The notes beneath the pieces were generated by a model. That model was not told the DNA's origin. It did not search any database and worked only from the letters and a program-made list of their open reading frames with translations. From Candidatus Babeliales bacterium (GTDB lineage: Bacteria; Babelota; Babeliae; Babelales; JACPOV01), in the NCBI GenBank assembly GCA_020054235.1, contig JAGVLQ010000026.1, forward strand, positions 505-64,504: a stretch of DNA of 64,000 bases, in the 5' to 3' direction. Position 1 is the stretch's first letter, and each line of letters starts with the position of its first letter. The translations under genes and the position numbers were made by a program. Of this stretch, positions 21,671 through 63,793 are shown piece by piece.

Positions 21671-23896
21671 TCAAATATTTTTTTGTAAAATAGTAGTCTT
21701 TTTGTGCATGTTTTTTAAGCCCGTAACTTCTTGTACTTTTTGTGATGATGAGCTATGGAATGCAAAACCAAGTTTTATTATTTCGTCAATAAAATCCATA
21801 GGTTTCAATCCAATTTCTGCAGCTTGATGAAAAATACATGTTGCAGGCGTTAGTCCTGGCAAAGTATTTATTTCCAAAATAACTACGCGTTCTTTTTTTG
21901 TTGGACTTTGTGCTGCTGTTTGATAAAAACAATCAATGCGGGCATATCCTTTACAGTCAACTGCTGTAAAAGCTTTTTCTATTGTTTTTTGGATAAATTC
22001 AAGAGTTTTTTTAGCTAAAGGGGCTGGGGTTTGGTTTTCTCCAGCACCAGGTAAAAATTTTTCTTGAATTGAGAGAATTCCCTTTTGTGCGATAGCTTGG
22101 CTTGGTGGTAAAGCCCTAGGTTTTTCGTTACCTAGAACCCCTACGGTTAATTCTATACCATGTATGAATTCTTCAACAAGCGCAAAATTTCTTTGCGCAG
22201 CAAAAATAGTTTCAAGGGCTATATTTAATTCTTGTTCATTGTTTGCCTTTGAAACCATAACGCTGCATCCATCATTATGTGGTTTTACAATGCATGGAAA
22301 TTTTAGTGTTGCAGCAATGTTTTTGGTAAGTGATTTTTTTTGTTCTTTCCATTGCGCGACACTAATTAACATTGCGCGAGGAACATCAAATCCTTGAGAA
22401 GCTAAAAATTGTGAAGTTTTAAATTTATCGATACAAAGTGCTGTTGAAAGGATTGAAGAACCATTATAGGGTAATTCAAGCATTTCTAAGGCCCCTTGAA
22501 CACAACCATTTTCACCTTCACCGCCATGGAGTGCAATAAAAACAAAATCTGCAATCGAAGGTAATTCATGCCAACCTAATTTCATGTCGGGGGTTATAAG
22601 ATCTTCTATTTCCTGGGTTGAATTTGACACCAGCATGCGCGTATTTAATCGGTAAAGCTCTAAAGATCGTGATAAAAAAAGAGGAATTGGTTCATATGTA
22701 TGTGGTGAAAGTTTATAGGTAACATTGCGTCCCGATTCTAATGAAATTTCTCGTTCATCAGAACGGCCACCCATGATTACTGCAACACGGATTTTTTTTT
22801 CTTGCAGATTGGTAGACATTTTTTGAAAGGCTTTCTTTTTTTGTATGCCATAAGCATGGAGTTCTGTTTCTATAAAATGATTGATCAATTGAGTATGATT
22901 CATATTGATCTGTGCTGCTTGTTTGAACAAAAAACTTGAGGGCGCAGCGCCAGAAAACGAATTGGGGTCAATAATAATAATTTCATTTTCAGATGTTAAA
23001 AAGCCATCAATACGGCCAAGATTTTTAAATTCTAAAATTTCCATTACCTTGACACATTCAGCTTGAATTTTTCTTATCAATGCAGCATTGCAGCGCGCCG
23101 GAGTATATTGCAAAGAACTTCCCGGCATGTATTTTTGATCATAATCAAAAAAATCTACATGTTTATTGATCACAATTTCTGTTGGCGGAAGAGGAAGAAG
23201 CATTTGGTTTTTGTAATCAGTAATGACAATGCAAGAAAATTCCATACCATCAATTTTTTTTTCAATAAGAACTGGTTGTGCTTTTTTATTGACGAAACGT
23301 GCATTTTGTATAGCTTTTAAAAGTTGATCTTTATGCTGAACAATGCTAGTGCCTAGACTAGAGCCTTCTTTTGCAGGTTTTACAATAACGGGAAATGGAA
23401 TATTTTCTTCATGAAGTTTTTGAGTAATTGCGGGAATATCATTGTGCTGTTGTTCTACTATAATACCTTTTGGAACTTTAATAGAATGTGCTTGTAAAAT
23501 TTTTTTCTGCATGATTTTGTCCATGCCCAATGCGCTTGCATATACTTTAGAGCCAAAATAAGGGATTTGTAAAAGTTCGAGCATGCCTTGCAGGGTGCCA
23601 TCTTCAGCAAACCGACCATGCATCGCAATGTACATAAAATCAATATACTTTTTTAGGCAATCCCACGTAATATGTTGCGCTTCGTTTTTTAAGCGATGAA
23701 CAAAATCAACTATTTTTCCACGATACAAAAATGCCCAAGGAAGAATATAAATTGTTCCGTCCAGAGTTTGAAATAAAGGAACTATTTCATAGCATGCAGT
23801 GTCGAGATGATCACAAATAGTGCGACCAGAATTGAGAGATACTTCGCATTCTTTTGATTTTCCTCCCATAAAAACACCGACGCGAATTTTTTGCAT
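21671..23896 (-). CDS. ddl: Tandem double D-alanine--D-alanine ligase (two ATP-grasp Ddl domains)
   Basis: Both halves have MGG.S.E.E.SL.SG, HG...E[DN]G..QG and VKP. The C-terminal half has ARID and EINTLPG. Confidence 0.85.
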   Translation of the reverse strand: MQKIRVGVFMGGKSKECEVSLNSGRTICDHLDTACYEIVPLFQTLDGTIYILPWAFLYRGKIVDFVHRLKNEAQHITWDCLKKYIDFMYIAMHGRFAEDGTLQGMLELLQIPYFGSKVYASALGMDKIMQKKILQAHSIKVPKGIIVEQQHNDIPAITQKLHEENIPFPVIVKPAKEGSSLGTSIVQHKDQLLKAIQNARFVNKKAQPVLIEKKIDGMEFSCIVITDYKNQMLLPLPPTEIVINKHVDFFDYDQKYMPGSSLQYTPARCNAALIRKIQAECVKVMEILEFKNLGRIDGFLTSENEIIIIDPNSFSGAAPSSFLFKQAAQINMNHTQLINHFIETELHAYGIQKKKAFQKMSTNLQEKKIRVAVIMGGRSDEREISLESGRNVTYKLSPHTYEPIPLFLSRSLELYRLNTRMLVSNSTQEIEDLITPDMKLGWHELPSIADFVFIALHGGEGENGCVQGALEMLELPYNGSSILSTALCIDKFKTSQFLASQGFDVPRAMLISVAQWKEQKKSLTKNIAATLKFPCIVKPHNDGCSVMVSKANNEQELNIALETIFAAQRNFALVEEFIHGIELTVGVLGNEKPRALPPSQAIAQKGILSIQEKFLPGAGENQTPAPLAKKTLEFIQKTIEKAFTAVDCKGYARIDCFYQTAAQSPTKKERVVILEINTLPGLTPATCIFHQAAEIGLKPMDFIDEIIKLGFAFHSSSSQKVQEVTGLKNMHKKTTILQKNI

Positions 23897-42711: not shown

Positions 42712-42963
42712 TTATAATTTTGATTTTAATTTTATATCGGGGAACTTTTTATCAAACTCTTGTTGAGATGGTTTTTGCTCTAAGAGGTTTGTAGCCTGTA
42801 TGCTAGATTCTTGAGGTTTTTGTGCATTATGTTGGCTATTTTTTTGGAGAGCTTCGATTTGTTTTTGCTGTTTTTCAATTTCTTCTTCTAAATCTATTAT
42901 ATTGAGCATAGTTGGAAGGTGGCTAAACAGAAGCGTAAAGGCTAGTAAGTAAACTTCAAACAT
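42712..42963 (-). CDS. Small protein with a hydrophobic N-terminus, ending in PTS1-like -KSKL
   Basis: AAGGA RBS. MFEVYLLAFTLLF...FPDIKLKSKL*. Confidence 0.7.
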   Translation of the reverse strand: MFEVYLLAFTLLFSHLPTMLNIIDLEEEIEKQQKQIEALQKNSQHNAQKPQESSIQATNLLEQKPSQQEFDKKFPDIKLKSKL

Positions 42964-42975
42964 TTTTTTCCTTTA

Positions 42976-43248
42976 TTATAATTTTGATTTTGGAGGTATG
43001 TTGTCTTCAAGGAAATTCTTATACAAAACTTCTTTTCTTTTGCCTCGAGTCATTTTGAGTAGATCTTGGATAGTCAATGGTTTTTTTTCGTCAGACTTAG
43101 GTGCAATATTATTTGTAGAATTATTATTTTTCGCTTTCGTTTCTTCCTGAGATTGTTTAGGTTGCTTTTGTGGAACATCATCATTAGATTTGATACCAAA
43201 AGATAACGAAGTTGCTAAAAAAAGAGAAATATGAAAAATAGTACGCAT
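42976..43248 (-). CDS. Small signal-peptide protein ending in PTS1-like -KSKL
   Basis: CAGGAG RBS before ATG 43248. MRTIFHISLFLATSLSFG...DNIPPKSKL*. Confidence 0.7.
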   Translation of the reverse strand: MRTIFHISLFLATSLSFGIKSNDDVPQKQPKQSQEETKAKNNNSTNNIAPKSDEKKPLTIQDLLKMTRGKRKEVLYKNFLEDNIPPKSKL

Positions 43249-43267
43249 TGGGTTATGAGCTCCTGTA

Positions 43268-43522
43268 TTATAATTTAGATTTGATATTTTGCAACATTCT
43301 TTCGAGTTCTTCTTTTGTTGGAGAATTCGGTTCTTTTTTTTGTTCATGTATTGTTAATAATATTTTACTTGGTTCTTTGCTCTCTTTTTTCTGGCAAGGA
43401 GATTTTTCCTGCGCTTGCTCTAATCTTTTTTTATTCTCTTGTTCAATTTTTTCACTTTTAATGTAAAAATCAGCTGCAATAAACATTGATAATAGGCTGA
43501 GCATAATTCCTTCAATGATCAT
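43268..43522 (-). CDS. Small protein with a hydrophobic N-terminus, ending in PTS1-like -KSKL
   Basis: AAGGAG RBS at the end of the upstream gene. MIIEGIMLSLLSMFIAA...MLQNIKSKL*. Confidence 0.7.
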   Translation of the reverse strand: MIIEGIMLSLLSMFIAADFYIKSEKIEQENKKRLEQAQEKSPCQKKESKEPSKILLTIHEQKKEPNSPTKEELERMLQNIKSKL

Positions 43523-44351: not shown

Positions 44352-46517
44352 ATGCACCAACTGTTTTTTATCCTATTTCTGTTTTCGCAAATACTAATCC
44401 CGTATGCCGTTTCACTTGAACAATATAAATATGAAACGGTTAAACATAAACCAAGAGCGGTTGAACTTCCTGAAGCTCAAAGGTTGCATAAATCATTTTT
44501 TGCAATTGGTGCGGCACTGAATCATCAGCCAAATTCATACAATGGTCTGAGTGCCAAGGATTTTGCGTATTATCACAATAAAGATAGGCAAACGTATTAT
44601 GTATGCTTGGTGCAAAATCTTTTTTTACTTAACAACGGCAATGAGCTTGAACGCGCAAAAGTATTTAATGCCATCGCATTTGGCAATCATCCGGCACAAT
44701 ATCATGATGTGCTATCTGCGTTGCTCAAAGTGTTACAAGCAAAATGTGATGATACGGGCAAACTGGTAAATCTTGAGCGCGATCCGTATTTAACTGCCTG
44801 TATTTACCAAGCGCTCAAAGATGCATTGCCACACAAAGTTTACCTTGATGTGCTCAAAGCTATGAATGACACAACGAGCGTTGAGTTGTTAGAAGCCGAA
44901 CAATCGTATACTTTTTTTGGCTACTATTGGACCAAGTTTTGGGAATCACTGAATCGCTTATTAAATGACTACACAAAACGCTCTTCCTGCTCATGGAACC
45001 AAATTATCAACCATCCGTATAATCTGAAATTGAAAGAACTTTTTTACCATATTGATCATAAAAATTTATTCGATGCGCAAGAAATTGCCAAGCAAGATCC
45101 GCTGTATGCGCAGATGTTTTCATGGTGCTGTAATGATTTTATTGCACAGCAAAAACAGGCGCAGGCGATCGCCAACCAAGAAACAGAAAAACTTGCACTC
45201 ATTGAAGATTCATGCCCCTTTTCTTTAGACAATGCAACGCATGAGCTTGAACGTGCACAAGCACTTAATGAAGCATTAGCAGAGCCAATGTTTGCACACA
45301 AAACTTTTTTACTGAGCAAACAAAGTGAAACATTGCTTAATGCAGTTGGCATAAACCCAAACCATTTTAAACAGTGCTATGGCAACCAAGTGCAACAAGC
45401 GTTGCATACTGAACACCTGCAAATCATTGAAGCTTCTGCAGGCATCTATTTTGTGCCCAATCAACGGCAAATGATCAAGGATATCATCGAGCACACGGTG
45501 CACTTTGTAGACAGTGCGCGCCAATACAACAAAGTTGGTTACGTACAAAAAGCTATCACGGGTACCGATTGCTGCTGGGCATTTTTAGAATGTGCACAAA
45601 GCATTGCCAAAGGAGTTGGCAAAGGAGTGTACCAAGGCACTAAAAATTTTGTTGATTATGCGGTGGACCATCCTGTTGAAGCGCTTGCACGGCCCTTGGT
45701 TGGTAACTTTATTTTAGCGTATCGCCTTGGCCACCTGACAGCACAGCTCATTAACGCCGGCCGCATCGGCGTGAGTGCTTGGCGCGGTGATGAAAATGCG
45801 CAACAAGAATGGGACCAAATCTGCACCAATATTACTGCAGTAAAAGATGCGTTAGCACAAAAATGCAAAACGTTGTCACTCGAAGAAAGCGTGCAGCATG
45901 CCACGGCGTTTGTGACCGAAACATTCCTTGATTATAAATGCGCCAACATGCTCAATAAATTCTACCAAACCGGTGAGCGCAAAACCCTAGAACTGATTGA
46001 CCAACTCAAAAACAATATTCCACCACCACCGCTTCATGCCGTTGCTCTGACTCCAGAAGGCTTTCCGATCGGCATTGCGGGCCAGGCCGCAGCAGTTGCA
46101 ACGGGCAACACAAACTCAGTGCTTAAAAAACTTGAAGACTTCGGTGGTGGTAATAGTTTATTTGCTTCGATGGAAAAAACTGGTAGAGGAAAATCTGGTG
46201 GGGATAAAACAGAGCTAGATAAAAATCAGCCAAGTGACAATGAACCAAGGTTTATTAAAGAGAAAGATGTACCAAAAGATAAGGAAACCATTTTAGCAGA
46301 TCCTTCATTTAAAAAAACAAATAAGTTTTTTGACGATGCGCGTATTTATGTGAAAAATGGCTTTTATTATTATAGGGATCAAATGCACAAAGGGAAAAGA
46401 GCTCACTTGGAAGTTTTTAATAAGCGAGGAAAGCATTTAGGTGAAGCAGATCCTTTGACAGGAATATTAATTCCTAATACTGCCGATAAAACTAAATCAA
46501 TAAAAAATTTAATATAA
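44352..46517 (+). CDS. Polymorphic toxin: signal peptide, uncharacterised body, C-terminal colicin E3-like (Cytotoxic) RNase domain
   Basis: C-terminal YYYRDQMHKGKRAHLEVFNKRGKHLGEADPLTG matches the colicin E3/cloacin pattern D-x-x-H...LE...G.HLG..DP.TG. Followed by a run of small genes. Confidence 0.8.
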   Translation: MHQLFFILFLFSQILIPYAVSLEQYKYETVKHKPRAVELPEAQRLHKSFFAIGAALNHQPNSYNGLSAKDFAYYHNKDRQTYYVCLVQNLFLLNNGNELERAKVFNAIAFGNHPAQYHDVLSALLKVLQAKCDDTGKLVNLERDPYLTACIYQALKDALPHKVYLDVLKAMNDTTSVELLEAEQSYTFFGYYWTKFWESLNRLLNDYTKRSSCSWNQIINHPYNLKLKELFYHIDHKNLFDAQEIAKQDPLYAQMFSWCCNDFIAQQKQAQAIANQETEKLALIEDSCPFSLDNATHELERAQALNEALAEPMFAHKTFLLSKQSETLLNAVGINPNHFKQCYGNQVQQALHTEHLQIIEASAGIYFVPNQRQMIKDIIEHTVHFVDSARQYNKVGYVQKAITGTDCCWAFLECAQSIAKGVGKGVYQGTKNFVDYAVDHPVEALARPLVGNFILAYRLGHLTAQLINAGRIGVSAWRGDENAQQEWDQICTNITAVKDALAQKCKTLSLEESVQHATAFVTETFLDYKCANMLNKFYQTGERKTLELIDQLKNNIPPPPLHAVALTPEGFPIGIAGQAAAVATGNTNSVLKKLEDFGGGNSLFASMEKTGRGKSGGDKTELDKNQPSDNEPRFIKEKDVPKDKETILADPSFKKTNKFFDDARIYVKNGFYYYRDQMHKGKRAHLEVFNKRGKHLGEADPLTGILIPNTADKTKSIKNLI

Positions 46518-46532
46518 AGAGCCAGGGACGTT

Positions 46533-47339
46533 ATGTTTTTAAAAAAACTTAAGATTTTAAAAATTCCTAATGGGATATGCTTTTTAGAAATTGTAGATAA
46601 TAAAGTTATTGTAAAAAATGAAAATGATGGATTATTTGTTTTTGATCAAGAATTAAATTTCAAAAAAAATTTAAATATTTTAAATCAATTAGCTATCTAT
46701 CGGGCATATAAAAACGACAATCAGTTATTACTTTATTGTGTAGAAAATTCATGCTTAATATACGTTAACTTACAAGATTATCGCCATAAAATTATTTCTT
46801 TGGCGCCAGAGCTATTTGAGGATATAACTTTTTCAAAACTATATATATGGAAAAATAATGAAATTGTTTTAACAACTTATAAAGATGAGTTATTTAAGGT
46901 TTCTATAAATGAAGGCATAATAGAAAAAGTAACTTTCGAGCAAATAAAGCATATAAGTGAAAAATTTAATGTCATTTTTTTAGATTCAAGCAATAGGCCT
47001 ATTTCTTACTATAATCAAAAGGAATCGGTTGTTCTTTCAGATGATTATGACACTCAAATTTTAACTATTTTTGATTATCAAAACGAACTAGAGAAAACGA
47101 TCCTTTTTACATTAAAAGATACGCATGACTTTATGTATCAAAATGGGAATGTTTTACTGGTGCATGAAGATCAACTGGAATTAGTAACGGCAGCAGGAGC
47201 AAGATTTATAGAAAAAATGGATAAACCAACATGGATTTTTTTAAGAGCTCAATTTTTAAGTGATAACTCTTCATTTGTAACGTTACTCAAAGATCAATCA
47301 AATCCAGAAATGCATGAATTACGAATTTATGAATTTTAA
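46533..47339 (+). CDS. Candidate cognate immunity protein (beta-rich)
   Basis: Starts 15 bp after the toxin stop, very AT-rich, no signal peptide. Assigned by position. Confidence 0.55.
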   Translation: MFLKKLKILKIPNGICFLEIVDNKVIVKNENDGLFVFDQELNFKKNLNILNQLAIYRAYKNDNQLLLYCVENSCLIYVNLQDYRHKIISLAPELFEDITFSKLYIWKNNEIVLTTYKDELFKVSINEGIIEKVTFEQIKHISEKFNVIFLDSSNRPISYYNQKESVVLSDDYDTQILTIFDYQNELEKTILFTLKDTHDFMYQNGNVLLVHEDQLELVTAAGARFIEKMDKPTWIFLRAQFLSDNSSFVTLLKDQSNPEMHELRIYEF

Positions 47340-47357: not shown

Positions 47358-47939
47358 ATGCACTATATAGATTTTTCTATTTCAAAAAACAATAAGCTAT
47401 CTATTTATATTCCACCTTTCCCGGAAAAAACGAATTTATATTATAAACCTTCTAGCGAATTACAGAGATTTGATGAGGTTAAAATTTTTTATGTTGATAA
47501 AAATAAAAAAATTTTGCTTTTGTTTGATATTGTTTATGAAATATTGTTTAGGTTATCTATTTGTTTAGAAAGAGCACTAAAAAATAACTTAACTCTTCCA
47601 TGTTCTGTTAAAGAAGGTTTATTAGGAAAAAAATTTAATATAATTACTTTTAATGAAATAGAGAATGACGAATCAAGTGACACTGATGATTTCTTTTCAA
47701 AGTATTGGCTTTTTTCAGACAAAGAAATACAAACGTGGATTTATAATGTTGAAGAAAAAATATGCATAGAAATTAGCCCAAGCTATAAATGGTTTTATCA
47801 AGACCCTAAGCCAAATGAAAAGTTTATTTCTTTTCAAAGTTTTATGGAAAATTATAAGACTTTTGCTTTTTTTTGTATCGATAAAGAGACTGCAAAAAAA
47901 TGGAAACAGCAGTACGATAGCATTTTAAAAGAGTTATAG
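47358..47939 (+). CDS. Putative orphan immunity protein
   Basis: AAGGA RBS, aromatic-rich cytoplasmic protein (YWLFS, TWIY, IEISPSYKW) within the toxin-following array. Confidence 0.5.
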   Translation: MHYIDFSISKNNKLSIYIPPFPEKTNLYYKPSSELQRFDEVKIFYVDKNKKILLLFDIVYEILFRLSICLERALKNNLTLPCSVKEGLLGKKFNIITFNEIENDESSDTDDFFSKYWLFSDKEIQTWIYNVEEKICIEISPSYKWFYQDPKPNEKFISFQSFMENYKTFAFFCIDKETAKKWKQQYDSILKEL

Positions 47940-47973: not shown

Positions 47974-48501
47974 ATGAATCTTGAACTAAAAGTAATGCGT
48001 GAACATAACATTCCTTATTCTTGGGAAACTATTTATGTTGGTAGAAAGATGAATCTTTTGAAACCAGAAGTTGTTGAGCACTATGCATTAGAGTATTTAG
48101 AAAATAATCCAAAATGTACAGATCCTTATATTGCGGAACTGGCATTTGGGGCGCAAGATACAGAAATTAATGATATTTTAGAAAAAATTTTTAAAGATTT
48201 AAATCTCAAATTACCAAAACCTGGGGATATAATTTGGAATATTGAAAAAAGAAAATGGCGATATTTGGTTTTAAATGATCTACTAGAAAAATATCAAGAA
48301 AAAATAGAAGAGTTTTTAAGAAAATTTGACGAAGTTTATTGTGATTTTGATCATTCAGAAGATATGGAACCATATGTGAGCACAGCTCCTGTCAGTGAAC
48401 TTTACAATGATGTTAAAACTGAAAAGGAATATTTAGAAACAAGATTAAATGAAATAAAAAAATTCATTGAAGATGAAAGAGAAAGCATTCGAGCAGTTTG
48501 A
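47974..48501 (+). CDS. DUF2247-like immunity protein
   Basis: SWETIYVG, RKWRYLVL, EVYCDFDHSEDMEPY resemble the DUF2247 pattern. Confidence 0.65.
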   Translation: MNLELKVMREHNIPYSWETIYVGRKMNLLKPEVVEHYALEYLENNPKCTDPYIAELAFGAQDTEINDILEKIFKDLNLKLPKPGDIIWNIEKRKWRYLVLNDLLEKYQEKIEEFLRKFDEVYCDFDHSEDMEPYVSTAPVSELYNDVKTEKEYLETRLNEIKKFIEDERESIRAV

Positions 48502-48808
48502 TTTTAAAGATGGAAAAATTACCTATGACGAATTTCATATAGATTTTTCTAGGCCATTATCAGAGCAATTGTATTTTTTGAAAGAAGATTTACTACAAGT
48601 AGAATATATGATTAATGAAGATAATTATATTCTTGATGTAGGCTGGTATTCAGAGATGGACCCTAACGGAACATTTAAAATAAGAGTTATCAAAAACTTT
48701 AATTGGCTAAATCCACTATATTTGAAAAAATGCAAAAAAGAAAAAGACTTTTTTGATTCTCTAAAGAATGCAATTGAAGTTATACAAAAAAACAAAGTAG
48801 GCTATTGA
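48473..48808 (+). CDS. Putative immunity protein (EDLLQ...DVGWY family), copy 1
   Basis: LKEDLLQVEY...LDVGWY...G.F.I.VIKNFNW..P. Paralogue of 49140-49490. Confidence 0.6.
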   Translation: MKEKAFEQFDFKDGKITYDEFHIDFSRPLSEQLYFLKEDLLQVEYMINEDNYILDVGWYSEMDPNGTFKIRVIKNFNWLNPLYLKKCKKEKDFFDSLKNAIEVIQKNKVGY

Positions 48809-48822
48809 TTTAAAAACTAATA

Positions 48823-49143
48823 GTGGATAATGCATTTATGGAAGAATTGTTACTAAAAATTAATAAAATTCTAAAAGAAATAAGTAATAATTTTTTAAAG
48901 AATAAAATAAGTAAAAATCTGTTTTTAGACCAAAATGAAAATTTAAGAAGCTTTAAATCAGCCTATGATGATTTAACTACGATTATAAATGAATTGGATA
49001 AAAATGATCTTCAAGATAAAAATATTGTTGAAGAAAAATTGGTTTATTTGTTAATGAATTTTTCGACAATTATCTCTTGTCTTGATCAATTTGATGATTT
49101 TATACGATTAATATTGCAAAAAATTCCGGATAAAGAAACATGA
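48823..49143 (+). CDS. Small helical protein, putative immunity
   Basis: 106-aa acidic ORF, ATGA-coupled to the next gene. Confidence 0.45.
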   Translation: MDNAFMEELLLKINKILKEISNNFLKNKISKNLFLDQNENLRSFKSAYDDLTTIINELDKNDLQDKNIVEEKLVYLLMNFSTIISCLDQFDDFIRLILQKIPDKET

Positions 49144-49490
49144 GTCTTTTAATGGGAATGTTAACAAATATTGATTTTAAAGGTGGAGAAATTCTTTTTG
49201 ATGATTTCGATATAGATTTTTCTAAGCCCTTTTCAGAGCAATTGTATTCTTTAAAAGAAGATTTATTTCAGGTTAATTATTCTAATGGAGATACATTTAC
49301 TATTGACATTGGTTGGTATCCAGAAATGGAAATTGAAGGAAACTTTATTACTTATGTAATTAAAAATTTTAATTGGGAAAAACCGTTATTCAAAGAAAAA
49401 TCAAAAAATCATAACAAACTTGTGCAAGATTTAAAAAACGCGATTGAAGTTGTTGAAAAAATTAAAAAAAGTAAAATAAAATCACTATAA
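49140..49490 (+). CDS. Putative immunity protein (EDLFQ...DIGWY family), copy 2
   Basis: IDFSKPFSEQLYSLKEDLFQV...IDIGWYPE...VIKNFNW. Clear paralogue of 48473-48808. Confidence 0.6.
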   Translation: MSLLMGMLTNIDFKGGEILFDDFDIDFSKPFSEQLYSLKEDLFQVNYSNGDTFTIDIGWYPEMEIEGNFITYVIKNFNWEKPLFKEKSKNHNKLVQDLKNAIEVVEKIKKSKIKSL

Positions 49491-49548: not shown

Positions 49549-50211
49549 ATGAAGGTATTGAATAAATTATCTTTTGGATTGCTTATAACAAGCTCTGTTA
49601 TCAATGCTCAAACCCAAAATACTCAAAATGAAAAATTTTCCAAATTAAAAAATACCTATGTTGCTCCATGCCAGAAACTTTATGGTAGTGCTTTAGTTGA
49701 TTGCATGGATTCTTTAAATGATGAAACGTTTTTAATACAATTGTATCTTTTAAAAGATGATAATAATCAAAGGAAACTGTTTTTTGAAAAAAAACTTACA
49801 AGTCCTGAAGAATATGAAAAGTTTTACAAGAGATTTAAAAGTGATGAAGAATGGCAGTCTATCGAAGATCAGTTTTCTCCGGAAGAACGGGCATTTTTTC
49901 CAAATATACACACAAAAAAACAACAAGAAGATGATGTGTATAGCCGAAAAGTTTGGCGTGCTGGGAAATATGTTGGTTATGGAGTTGGTGCCCTAGCAGT
50001 GATTGGCACAGGAGGTTATGGTGCTGTGTTGCTTTATAATTATATCTATGCTGCGGGAGCAGCTGCAAAGGTCGCTGAACTTGCATTAGCAGCAAAACTT
50101 GCAGCAGGAGGAATAACAGCTGAACAAGCTGCAGCAGGTGGGGCAACAATTATTGCAGGGGCACTTTGTGGAGGTAATCCCCAAAATCAACAGGAAAAGA
50201 TACCAAGTTAA
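49549..50211 (+). CDS. Secreted/membrane protein: PC-x10-CM domain plus a Gly/Ala-rich hydrophobic tail
   Basis: Signal peptide, APCQKLYGSALVDCM, tail VGYGVGALAVIGTGG...AAAGGATIIAG. Confidence 0.65.
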   Translation: MKVLNKLSFGLLITSSVINAQTQNTQNEKFSKLKNTYVAPCQKLYGSALVDCMDSLNDETFLIQLYLLKDDNNQRKLFFEKKLTSPEEYEKFYKRFKSDEEWQSIEDQFSPEERAFFPNIHTKKQQEDDVYSRKVWRAGKYVGYGVGALAVIGTGGYGAVLLYNYIYAAGAAAKVAELALAAKLAAGGITAEQAAAGGATIIAGALCGGNPQNQQEKIPS

Positions 50212-61857: not shown

Positions 61858-61934
61858 GTGCCCGTAGCTCAGCTGGATAGAGCAACGGATTTCTAATCCG
61901 TAGGTCGTAGGTTCGAATCCTACCGGGCACACCA
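61858..61934 (+). tRNA. tRNA-Arg(TCT)
   Basis: GTGCCCG-TAGCTCAGCTGGATAGAGCA-ACGGA-TTTCTAA-TCCGT-AGGTC-GTAGG-TTCGAAT-CCTAC-CGGGCAC-ACCA cloverleaf. Confidence 0.96.
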
Positions 61935-63380
61935 CTCTTGGCAATCCGCTGTTTTTAGTATTACATCAAAGGGCTTATGCGCGTCGTAGAGCATCTTTTC
62001 GTCTTTTAGGCGTACGTTCGAAAGTACCAGCTTGATAAGCTGTCGTTTTTCCTCAACTTCAGAACTCACAAAAAGTTCATGAGCACGGGATGCTAGATCT
62101 ACTAAGAGTTTTGCCGTGATTGTGTAGTTGTCGTGAGCCTCGTCAATTTGTTCGAGTTTAATGGTTAAGGTAGTCAGTTCATCCTTCAGACTTTGATGAA
62201 ATCTGACATACTCGCTCTCAGTAATTCTCCCTTTTAATTTATCAAGGTATAAATTATCAAGCATGGTGCGGGTTTGCGTTTGTTTCTTTTTGAGCACGCT
62301 GACGTGATTGTCATAAAAATCTTGTTTCTCTTTTTCAAGCTCATTGAGCGTGGCAATAATTTGCTCAACAATATCCGGTGGCATTTGTAAGTTTTTAAAA
62401 ACAGCTTCAAATTGCCGGGTGAGCTCTTCTTCTCGTAACCACGGTGCATTATGTTTGCCGTTGTATTGGGTGCAATGGTAATAGACAAATCCTTTATGTT
62501 TTTCTGGTGTTATGGCTAAATCGCACTCTGCGCAGCGGATAAGGCCGCGGTAAATGTAGGGTTTGCCGGCGTATTTGATGGGTTTTTTATTAAAGTTCAT
62601 TTTGATTGCCTGCACTTGTTCAAAGAGGGTTTTGGTTATGATGGGTGGGTACTTGTGGGGATATTCTTTTTCATTCCACCTCATGATGCCACAATAAAAC
62701 TTTTGCTTCAAAAGATAATCGATGTAGCCTCGTGACCAATTGAGACGATATTCTTTCTTGAGTTTATCGCACAACAGTTGCATGGAATAACTGCCGGTTG
62801 CATAAAGCTCATACACAAGTTTGACTAATTGCGCTTCATACTCTTCTACAATAATGTCTGCTTTGCGGTTTTCCCTGCGTATGTTGCGGTAGCCGTAGGG
62901 TGCTTTTGCGGGCCATTCGCCAGCGCGTAATTTTTGTTCAAGCGCGCGACTTACGTTGTCACTAATGGCGTCTGAGTAATATTTTGCTAACCCCAAGCTG
63001 ATACCAAAGTGGAACTTTTCTGCTGCTGAAATGCCGCTGTTGATTACTTGACCGTCGGAAATAAAATGGAGTTCAACTTCATCCTTCAATGCTTTGTCAT
63101 AAAGATATGAAATGCGCTTATCAAACATGTTGCGCGAAAGGCGGTCAACTTTATCACAACACAATGCTATCTTTTCTTTTTGCATGTTTATGAATGCCAA
63201 GATTTGATCAAACTGCCCGCGTTCGTCAGTGTAGGCACTTTCATCAAAACTAAAACTTTGTATGATAGTAAAGTTTTTACTTTCGCAATAGTTTTTAAGC
63301 CGTGTGATCTGTGCGGGCAATGACAACCCGGCCTCTTTTTGTTCTTCGGTACTGACGCGTGCAATAATGATGGCATTCAT
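61920..63380 (-). CDS. Large serine recombinase (resolvase + recombinase + zinc-ribbon domains)
   Basis: ARVSTEEQ (catalytic Ser), [20 protein letters not shown]...YYHC, coiled coil. Start placed at [10 protein letters not shown]. The stop codon lies inside tRNA-Arg. Confidence 0.92.
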
Positions 63381-63793
63381 TGTGTAGGTCTTTCTTATTA
63401 CATGTTCGATAGTATTTGCAAATAAAGCTAAAAAGAGTGTACTGGAAAATTGTTTTTTTGATGAGTTTTTACTTTGTTCTTGCAATAGCCAATAAAATGT
63501 ATAAACTACAAAGCCATCTAAATGTTTACTAACAGGAGAAACCCATGAGTTGCGATATCATATTCTTTGCGCACTGCTCAACTATGCATGCCGAGTGCAT
63601 GTATGGCATTGGGATGGGTTCTACTTTAAAAAAAGTTCTAAATACTTTTCTTGCTAGAATCTAGCGCACTAGATTGCCCATCGGCAATTTAGAATTATCC
63701 CTTTTTACTTATTATTGTTTAAGTTCAAAAAAATTAGATAAAGCTTTTTAAGCTTTATATGAAAGATTGTTTTGTATGTTAAGAAACCGAACA

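Follow-up and report, generated by a model that had tools for sequence, protein, structure and literature searches.

Known systems and the locus

The principle of a lineage-specific constant domain standing behind a signal peptide has already been described: the relevant passages of Zhang et al. (2012, PMC3482391) treat the constant domains MafB-N, Microscilla-N and APD1/2, and predict the principle to be more widespread. Examination of a 64,000-nucleotide stretch of DNA (hereafter the window; positions 505 to 64,504 of the forward strand of contig JAGVLQ010000026.1, assembly GCA_020054235.1) from a Candidatus Babeliales bacterium, a member of the Dependentiae (TM6), revealed an open reading frame (ORF) of 721 amino acids at 44352..46517 (+) that follows a comparable plan. 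The gene probably encodes a polymorphic toxin exported by Sec and a type II secretion system (T2SS), with a ribosome-cutting tip and a cognate immunity gene.

Like MafB of Neisseria, which has MafI as its immunity partner, the Dependentiae toxin couples a probable Sec signal peptide to a constant domain and exchangeable C-terminal toxins; in both systems immunity genes lie downstream and a genome may hold several copies. EndoU, Ntox17, Ntox21 and Ntox35, all of which occur as tips on the Dependentiae module, are listed with 'T2SS (MafBN)' in the relevant entries of Zhang et al. (2012, PMC3482391). The two systems differ in that the Dependentiae module directly precedes the tip, whereas MafB-N directly follows the signal peptide. 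No match to PF06255 (MafB-N/DUF1020) was found in the genome (E<=10) or in 147 homologues of the toxin (E<=1e-3), nor is this family one of the 25 that match most often out of 56 hitting 55 members (E<=10). Export of MafB in Neisseria depends on MafA, as stated in the pertinent part of PMC7738311; no MafA-like neighbour recurs in 18 loci with flanks of ~1-1.5 kb, although the MafA model itself was not searched. A protein-language-model atlas, used for leads only, placed a MafB cluster (0.86, third) and a PT-TG cluster (0.84) near the module, and Pfam searches did not confirm either as its kin.

APD1 and APD2 of Amoebophilus, the host of which is an amoeba, and Microscilla-N likewise place a lineage-specific constant domain after a signal peptide and end in highly polymorphic C-termini, according to the passages devoted to them by Zhang et al. 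(2012, PMC3482391). By that description, on which the comparison is based, APD1 and APD2 follow a lipobox and are read as host-directed effectors that are deployed in parallel and lack immunity genes, whereas the Dependentiae toxin has no lipobox cysteine and is accompanied by immunity genes.

The likeness to the colicin E3/cloacin DF13 domain (PF09000, Tox-ColE3) lies in the predicted fold of residues ~636-721, for which 79-81 of 96-97 residues could be aligned; the tip also has a conserved Asp-x-x-His...Glu set of similar pattern, and, as for colicin E3 with its immunity protein Im3, an immunity gene is placed immediately downstream. Here, however, the toxin has a signal peptide and is devoid of colicin T or R domains, and the 268-amino acid immunity protein is unrelated to Im3, with a predicted interface over the D-x-x-H segment. 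The C-terminal tip of CdiA from Enterobacter cloacae (CdiA-CT, PDB 4ntq), the second-best structural match, is also a polymorphic toxin tip with a dedicated immunity protein, but the carrier described here lacks the two-partner secretion (TPS) domain, the filamentous haemagglutinin (FHA) repeats and the VENN motif. A colicin proper was ruled out by the signal-peptide-like N-terminus and by the chromosomal context among housekeeping genes, no colicin T or R domain being detected (Pfam, E<=1). Cargo of contact-dependent inhibition, Rhs or type VI or type VII secretion systems was rejected as well, since none of their signature domains was found (Pfam at E<=1, NCBIfam).

Organization of the toxin

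The first 21 residues (MHQLFFILFLFSQILIPYAVS; 44352..44414, +) form a signal-peptide-like N-terminus with a predicted cleavage site and without a lipobox cysteine. They make up the highest Kyte-Doolittle window of the protein (2.19), no second transmembrane-like segment being present; the Sec-type N-terminus proposed in an earlier sequence-only reading is borne out as signal-peptide-like. Residues 22-289 (44415..45218, +) constitute a variable, helical and family-restricted region with no Pfam match. An exhaustive HMMER search found this region matched by three proteins only, P0002, P0008 (a paralogue from the same genome) and P0125, and it can be aligned at low identity with the paralogue carried by contig 9 of the same genome. 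A conserved pre-toxin module follows at residues 290-570 (45219..46061, +), then a Gly/Lys-rich linker at residues 571-615 (46062..46196, +), which is the final stretch common to P0002 and the paralogue before the tips diverge, and lastly the colicin E3-like tip at residues 616-721 (46197..46517, +) with D676, H679, H685, E687, H695 and G697.

All the motifs on which the sequence-only reading relied were located in the protein, namely the Gly-rich AKGVGKGVYQGTKNF at 419-433, ALTPEG at 565-570, GGGNSLF from 598 (the start of the G/K-rich linker) and, in the tip, RDQMH at 675-679 (D676, H679), HLEVF at 685-689 (E687) and HLGEADPLTG at 695-704. The protein has no match to Rhs/YD, haemagglutinin, LXG, PAAR, VgrG or MafB families (Pfam, E<=1) and none in NCBIfam. 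The earlier statement that the body carries no known delivery hallmark agrees with the searches of Pfam, NCBIfam, PDB sequences and fold libraries, none of which returned a known delivery domain. The features of the toxin do not arise by chance: 727 proteins match its body at E<=1e-3, and an alignment of 36 tips shows no variation at D676, H679, E687 and G697.

The body has a GC content of 42.3% (45.3% in the module), which falls to 31.5% for the tip and 24-29% among the ORFs that follow up to position 50211, against 34.4% for the window as a whole. This drop from the body to the tip and the downstream genes would fit the exchange of tip and immunity gene as a cassette. A scan for promoters and terminators did no better than on shuffled sequence (30 promoter-like sites against 30.5 expected). 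Contigs of four sequencing runs attest to the presence of this DNA only. One of them (run X5) resembles the locus up to position 46203, which is the junction between body and tip; the 19 differing letters beyond it are too few to use.

A conserved pre-toxin module

A word-based search returned one close homologue, P0002, with 63% identity to the toxin; the two sequences stay much alike up to 'GKS' at residue 615 and lose their likeness beyond it. When the toxin and P0002 together served as query in an exhaustive HMMER search, 727 body homologues were recovered at E<=1e-3, 250 of them at E<=1e-10, and most of the 727 cover query positions ~300-580 only. According to a crude hydrophobicity heuristic, a signal-peptide-like hydrophobic start is present in 113 of the 139 family members with a complete N-terminus.

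The module is characterized by R301, G344-N-Q-x-Q348..H352-x-E354, Y392-N393, D406-x-C408-W409, G425, G429, H440-P441, K529 and T567-P-E-G570, the last of these directly preceding the junction between body and tip. Across 136 members G425 is kept in 100% and P441 in 99%, followed by Q348, E354 and D406 (93% each), C408 (92%), H352 and N393 (90% each) and H440 (80%), with R301, G344 and G429 near-invariant. An AlphaFold2 (AF2) model built from 55 sequences is helical, with a mean predicted local distance difference test (pLDDT) of 75.5 and values above 90 for residues 290-420. Neither MafB nor PT-TG is one of the 25 Pfam families that match 55 members most often at E<=10, and the sequence and fold searches linked the module to no known family. 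The module is thus an undescribed helical family of ~280 amino acids, specific to this group of proteins.

Polymorphism of the C-terminal tips

The sequence-only reading had called for a search of the body to see whether its homologues carry different C-terminal toxins, and this is what was found. Of the 150 listed homologues (of the 727), 147 were scanned with Pfam, P0133 and P0154 being left out and P0002 scanned separately. Recognisable toxin domains from seven Pfam families (E<=1e-3) occur at the C-terminus of 36 of these 147 proteins: EndoU_bacteria in 12 (one below the cut-off), Ntox17 in 7, Ntox21 in 5, Ntox35 in 5, Cytotoxic (PF09000) in 4 (one below the cut-off), DUF4258 in 2 (both below the cut-off) and the barnase-type Ribonuclease PF00545 in 1. 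One of the 36 additionally has a PT-HINT domain. BLAST grouped 125 tails of at least 60 amino acids into 26 clusters, many of which have no family name. The module itself is present in 152 of the 156 homologues analysed, and 32 of these bear an E3-like tip.

A complete paralogue is encoded on contig 9 of the same genome (L002 976-3108). It is collinear with the toxin as far as residue ~610, signal peptide included, with 27% identity, and it ends in an unrelated tip of ~110 amino acids; its tail belongs to a 10-member cluster without a Pfam name. Contig 25 carries a fragment. Judged by eye, the tip of the L100 toxin resembles that of the contig-9 paralogue.

The toxin is therefore modular, and in its relatives one module bears many alternative RNase tips. 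The polymorphism announced by the sequence-only reading stands on these 26 tail clusters; its wording of a new polymorphic toxin class was overstated, the principle being set out in the passages of Zhang et al. (2012, PMC3482391) cited above.

The colicin E3-like tip

Relatives of the tip, with 49-57% identity to residues 616-721, are found on proteins of 234-863 amino acids. The AF2 model of the tip (36 sequences) has a pLDDT of 90. When this model was compared with PDB structures by Foldseek, ranks 1 to 5 were all colicin E3 RNase (probability 1.00, template-modelling score 0.51-0.58, 79-91 columns, about 21% identity, E 3.9e-3 to 6.8e-2) and rank 8 was the CdiA-CT of Enterobacter cloacae. 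VIA-align, an aligner independent of Foldseek run against 48,161 chains, also placed colicin E3 first (4v5k_AY, Z 7.7, root-mean-square deviation (rmsd) 2.9, 79 of 97 residues aligned) and CdiA-CT second (4ntq_A, Z 5.5, rmsd 3.0, 66 of 76 aligned), all others reaching 3.3 at most. Further colicin E3 entries gave Z 8.2-8.8, including 1jch_A (Z 8.8, rmsd 3.3, 80 aligned) and 1e44_B (Z 8.3, 81 of 96 aligned), a Z near 8 lying where common arrangements occur. In related tips of the same BLAST cluster or profile family, PF09000 'Cytotoxic' scores above its cut-off (P0049 with 23.8 bits, P0101 with 23.9 and P0095 with 28.4). The tip has a colicin E3-like fold, as the sequence-only reading had proposed; the proposal is upheld at the level of the fold, and sequence-level support is weak.

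In addition to the four positions invariant in 36 tips, an alignment of 13 tips shows D676, H679, H685 and E687 to be invariant, while H695 is kept only in the toxin's own subclade. These residues we take, by their pattern rather than from a superposition, to be the putative equivalents of the colicin E3 active site. For the latter, Zhang et al. (2012, PMC3482391) name D55, H58, E62 and H72 as candidate residues in the passage concerned, where the H72 histidine is said to be conserved throughout the colicin E3 fold and the true catalytic histidine to be uncertain.

The candidate immunity gene and the downstream array

A candidate cognate immunity gene (46533..47339, +; hereafter ORF268) starts 15 nt past the stop codon of the toxin. 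It codes for a cytoplasmic protein of 268 amino acids without a signal peptide and has no Pfam or NCBIfam match. The Im3 family PF03513 is absent from the locus, and across the genome it gave a noise match only (E 0.27).

Profile scans of 261 genomes located E3-like tips at 55 places in 38 genomes and relatives of ORF268 at 19 places in 17 genomes. Of the 10 tip places that reach E<=1e-20, 8 are followed on the same strand by a relative of ORF268, intact at seven of them (G000, G253, G220, G250, G003, G215, G256) and degenerate at G251; it is absent at two of these best-tip places, G254 and G061. Twelve relatives are full-length, seven of which directly follow an E3-like tip gene, two belong to arrays that follow a module toxin of a different tip type, two have no toxin within ~3 kb upstream and one is on a 1.7-kb contig.

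A model of the tip in complex with the ORF268 protein obtained a median score of 0.79, versus 0.00 for the best of three controls. Of 157 solved complexes 116 scored as high, as did 2 of 215 mismatched pairs, a calibration that is only rough, own alignments having been used. Model runs share at least 76% of their contacts, the pLDDT of the partner is at least 85, and the predicted interface takes in tip residues 62-65, which are residues 677-680 of the toxin and include H679. Contacts of the partner recur along the whole length of ORF268, and its neighbours in the atlas are DUF4915, DUF5050 and propeller clusters (0.95, with low recognition and as a lead only). Because both observations hint at such a fold, the protein is possibly propeller-like. 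Together, the co-occurrence at 8 of 10 places and the complex model favour the view that this ORF, proposed in the sequence-only reading for co-expression with the tip, acts as its cognate immunity gene, and we propose that it represents a new immunity family, which follows E3-like tips and is predicted to bind them. Some candidates of the ORF268 family (L007 2763-3905, L100 92-1237 and L103 3073-3999) have an extra helical N-terminal extension of ~120 amino acids.

Five more closely spaced ORFs follow ORF268 on the same strand. The first, of 193 amino acids (47358..47939, +), is separated from ORF268 by 18 nt, has a GC content of 25.4% and no family match in Pfam or NCBIfam, and may be regarded as immunity-like by its position. 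The second (47974..48501, +) encodes a 175-amino acid protein of the immunity family DUF2247 (PF10004, E 9.2e-20), which is Imm38 in the classification of Zhang et al. (2012, PMC3482391), where the entries concerned pair it with Ntox19 and with NGO1392-like HNH toxins and place it in heterogeneous polyimmunity loci. Since no Ntox19 or HNH toxin is encoded at the locus, the Imm38 gene is here an orphan immunity gene. Then come three small ORFs (48467-48808, 48823-49143 and 49140-49490, all +) with a GC content of 24.3% and no significant match in Pfam or NCBIfam, the first and last of which look paralogous by eye. At the end of the array, positions 49549-50211 of the window encode a secreted protein of 220 amino acids with a Gly/Ala-rich C-terminus. 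The N-terminal part of a secreted 115-amino acid ORF near the contig-9 toxin (L002 4121-4468) contains cysteines and looks, by eye, like that of this protein.

Distribution of the module and genomic context

The source genome (1.25 Mb, 29 contigs, 95% complete) encodes an AtpA with 65-77% identity to those of TM6/Dependentiae/Babeliales metagenome-assembled genomes (MAGs) and ~50% to those of other phyla. Dependentiae are known solely as intracellular parasites of protists, as far as the relevant parts of PMC4776705 and PMC4378268 state, which agrees with the intracellular lineage suspected from the sequence. The module is present in 117 of 261 Dependentiae genomes (E<=1e-5), its share of the high-quality genomes being 88 of 189 and that of the genera 77 of 145, with up to ~10 copies per genome. 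Several genomes are multi-copy and tandem arrays occur, as in G233, a Dependentiae genome of ~1.1 Mb in which contig 1 carries four module-bearing toxin genes in tandem within 10 kb (1007044-1016614). Both module matches that bear NCBI names are labelled 'Candidatus Babeliales bacterium'. The module was found in none of 201 genomes from the order of a Rickettsiaceae MAG and in none of 5 miscellaneous non-Dependentiae genomes, which are samples and not a proof of absence; a related-locus search of genome contigs with the single toxin protein as query returned no relative.

Among the other products of the window are ankyrin-repeat and WD40 proteins. On the minus strand, a 741-amino acid ORF (21671-23896) is a fused tandem Ddl in which the D-Ala-D-Ala ligase unit is present twice in full (its N-terminal and its C-terminal domain are each matched two times), and a large serine recombinase with Resolvase, Recombinase and zinc-ribbon domains is encoded near the window end (61920-63485). 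Three tandem small ORFs of 83, 123 and 84 amino acids (42712-43522, minus strand) have hydrophobic N-terminal segments and all end in K-S-K-L. A C-terminal SKL occurs in 4 of the 1550 ORFs of at least 70 amino acids in the genome, three of which are these tandem ORFs. Such a C-terminus resembles the eukaryotic peroxisomal targeting signal.

Proposed mechanism and alternative explanations

The genome encodes two secretins and two T2SS-type ATPases. In the parts of PMC4776705 and PMC4378268 bearing on secretion, T2SS is the sole secretion system reported in TM6 bacteria, and Zhang et al. (2012, PMC3482391), in the relevant section, file polymorphic toxins with a signal peptide only under 'T2SS/Sec'. 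We propose that the toxin would be exported by Sec and released via the type II machinery, that the body would carry the tip into a neighbouring bacterium and that the tip would there cleave 16S rRNA near the decoding centre by means of D676, H679 and E687, so that translation would stop. In kin, the cytoplasmic immunity protein of 268 amino acids may block the tip by covering the D-x-x-H segment, and the additional immunity-type genes downstream may guard against the toxins of other strains.

Several observations weigh against this reading, in addition to the range of Z scores and the rough calibration given above. For the module, the Gly-rich and His-Pro stretch 423-460 has a pLDDT below 50 in the AF2 model, Foldseek made no assignment (best E 0.088, to G protein-coupled receptors and designed helical proteins) and VIA-align gave no specific match (best Z 9.6; the 18 chains that reach Z>=8 are without exception generic helical bundles); a part in delivery, release or anchoring is suggested by its position alone. 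For the tip, PF09000, the one relevant Pfam match of the protein at E<=1, reaches only 17.5 bits on the toxin itself (E 0.0053, residues 682-710), below the cut-off of 22, and four HMMER searches of PDB sequences, with the whole protein, the tip and profiles A2 and A6, missed colicin E3 at E<=10. Likewise, none of the Foldseek E-values for the tip passes 1e-3, and H695, the probable counterpart of colicin E3 H72, is missing from one tip subclade. No homologue of ORF268 is adjacent to any of the 45 weaker E3-like tip places, and downstream of the contig-9 paralogue no co-directional ORF resembles an immunity gene, the next gene being convergent and coding for a secreted protein of 235 amino acids.

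The module could instead be an enzyme for processing or release, such as a Cys or His peptidase freeing the tip, or a domain for surface anchoring or clustering, rather than a delivery device. Its highly conserved polar residues (Q348, D406 and C408 among them) and the TPEG motif just ahead of the junction would suit such a role, and both releasing peptidases and 'constant' clustering domains are described for polymorphic toxins in the sections of Zhang et al. (2012, PMC3482391) on them. The module has no match to a peptidase family, either in Pfam at E<=10 (55 members) or in the fold searches, and its conserved cysteines could be disulfides of an exported protein; we consider this role possible, if unlikely, and it would be compatible with the proposed export of a polymorphic toxin, not exclusive of it. 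The target could also be the host, the tip cutting cytosolic or mitochondrial small-subunit rRNA of the protist and the immunity protein merely shielding the producer before export. This would suit a phylum known only as intracellular protist parasites, the ankyrin and WD40 proteins of the window, which are typical of host manipulation, and the contig-9 paralogue without an adjacent immunity gene, and the constant-N/variable-C effectors of Amoebophilus are argued to act on the host in the corresponding passage of Zhang et al. (2012, PMC3482391). A Sec substrate, however, crosses the membrane unfolded, and a cytoplasmic immunity protein would then be best explained by a toxin that re-enters the bacterial cytoplasm. 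Orphan immunity genes (Imm38, and ORF268 relatives behind other tips or toxin-less within 3 kb) argue for conflict of bacteria with bacteria, and all recognised tips belong to families used in inter-bacterial conflict, which makes the host an unlikely target. Both the cytoplasmic location of the immunity protein and the occurrence of orphan immunity genes favour bacterial targets.

The activity of the tip leaves room for another explanation, namely that it has the colicin E3 fold and acts on a different substrate, such as tRNA or another rRNA site, or is catalytically altered. Its identity to colicin E3 is 18-26% in structural alignments, the spacing from H679 to E687 is four residues longer than in the sister subclade and the H695 position varies across subclades, to which is added the uncertainty over the catalytic histidine of the fold expressed in Zhang et al. 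(2012, PMC3482391) in the passage on it. Against this, the acidic-His-acidic set is invariant in the tips, and the solved relatives, colicin E3 and the CdiA-CT of E. cloacae, are both described, by their depositors or in the literature, as ribosome-acting. The latter is specific for 16S rRNA. A changed substrate or activity therefore appears rather unlikely to us, and a ribosome-cutting tip carried by a Sec/T2SS-exported polymorphic toxin remains the explanation that we retain.

Significance

A full-text literature search, covering neither subscription journals nor supplements, found no paper combining Dependentiae or TM6 with 'polymorphic toxin'. EndoU is mentioned in one genome paper on Dependentiae, which in the part concerned treats it solely as a cytoplasmic nuclease, and the papers retrieved with 'Babeliales' and 'toxin' are, judging from the titles and first lines of the abstracts as listed, surveys of microbiomes or communities. 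The toxin is thus a known strategy on a new carrier module and with a new immunity family, in a phylum previously without a description of it.

The pre-toxin module defined here is an undescribed one that counts its members in the hundreds and keeps several polar residues nearly invariant. Over a dozen tail clusters lack a family assignment and are candidate new toxin domains, and ORF268 and its relatives would add a new immunity family for colicin E3-like RNases, ~270 amino acids long, possibly propeller-like and predicted to cover the catalytic segment. It is improbable, in our judgement, that the module acts by itself as a new kind of entry device, letting a toxin released through Sec/T2SS cross the envelope of neighbouring Dependentiae or of the host mitochondria around such parasites; if it did, genome-reduced intracellular bacteria would be waging strain-level ribosome warfare, or controlling organelles, inside one protist cell. 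Dependentiae have genomes of 0.7-1.9 Mb and are obligately intracellular, yet 117 of 261 of these genomes carry the module, and such an investment despite their small size suggests strong conflict within protist hosts, be it with co-infecting strains or with the host itself.

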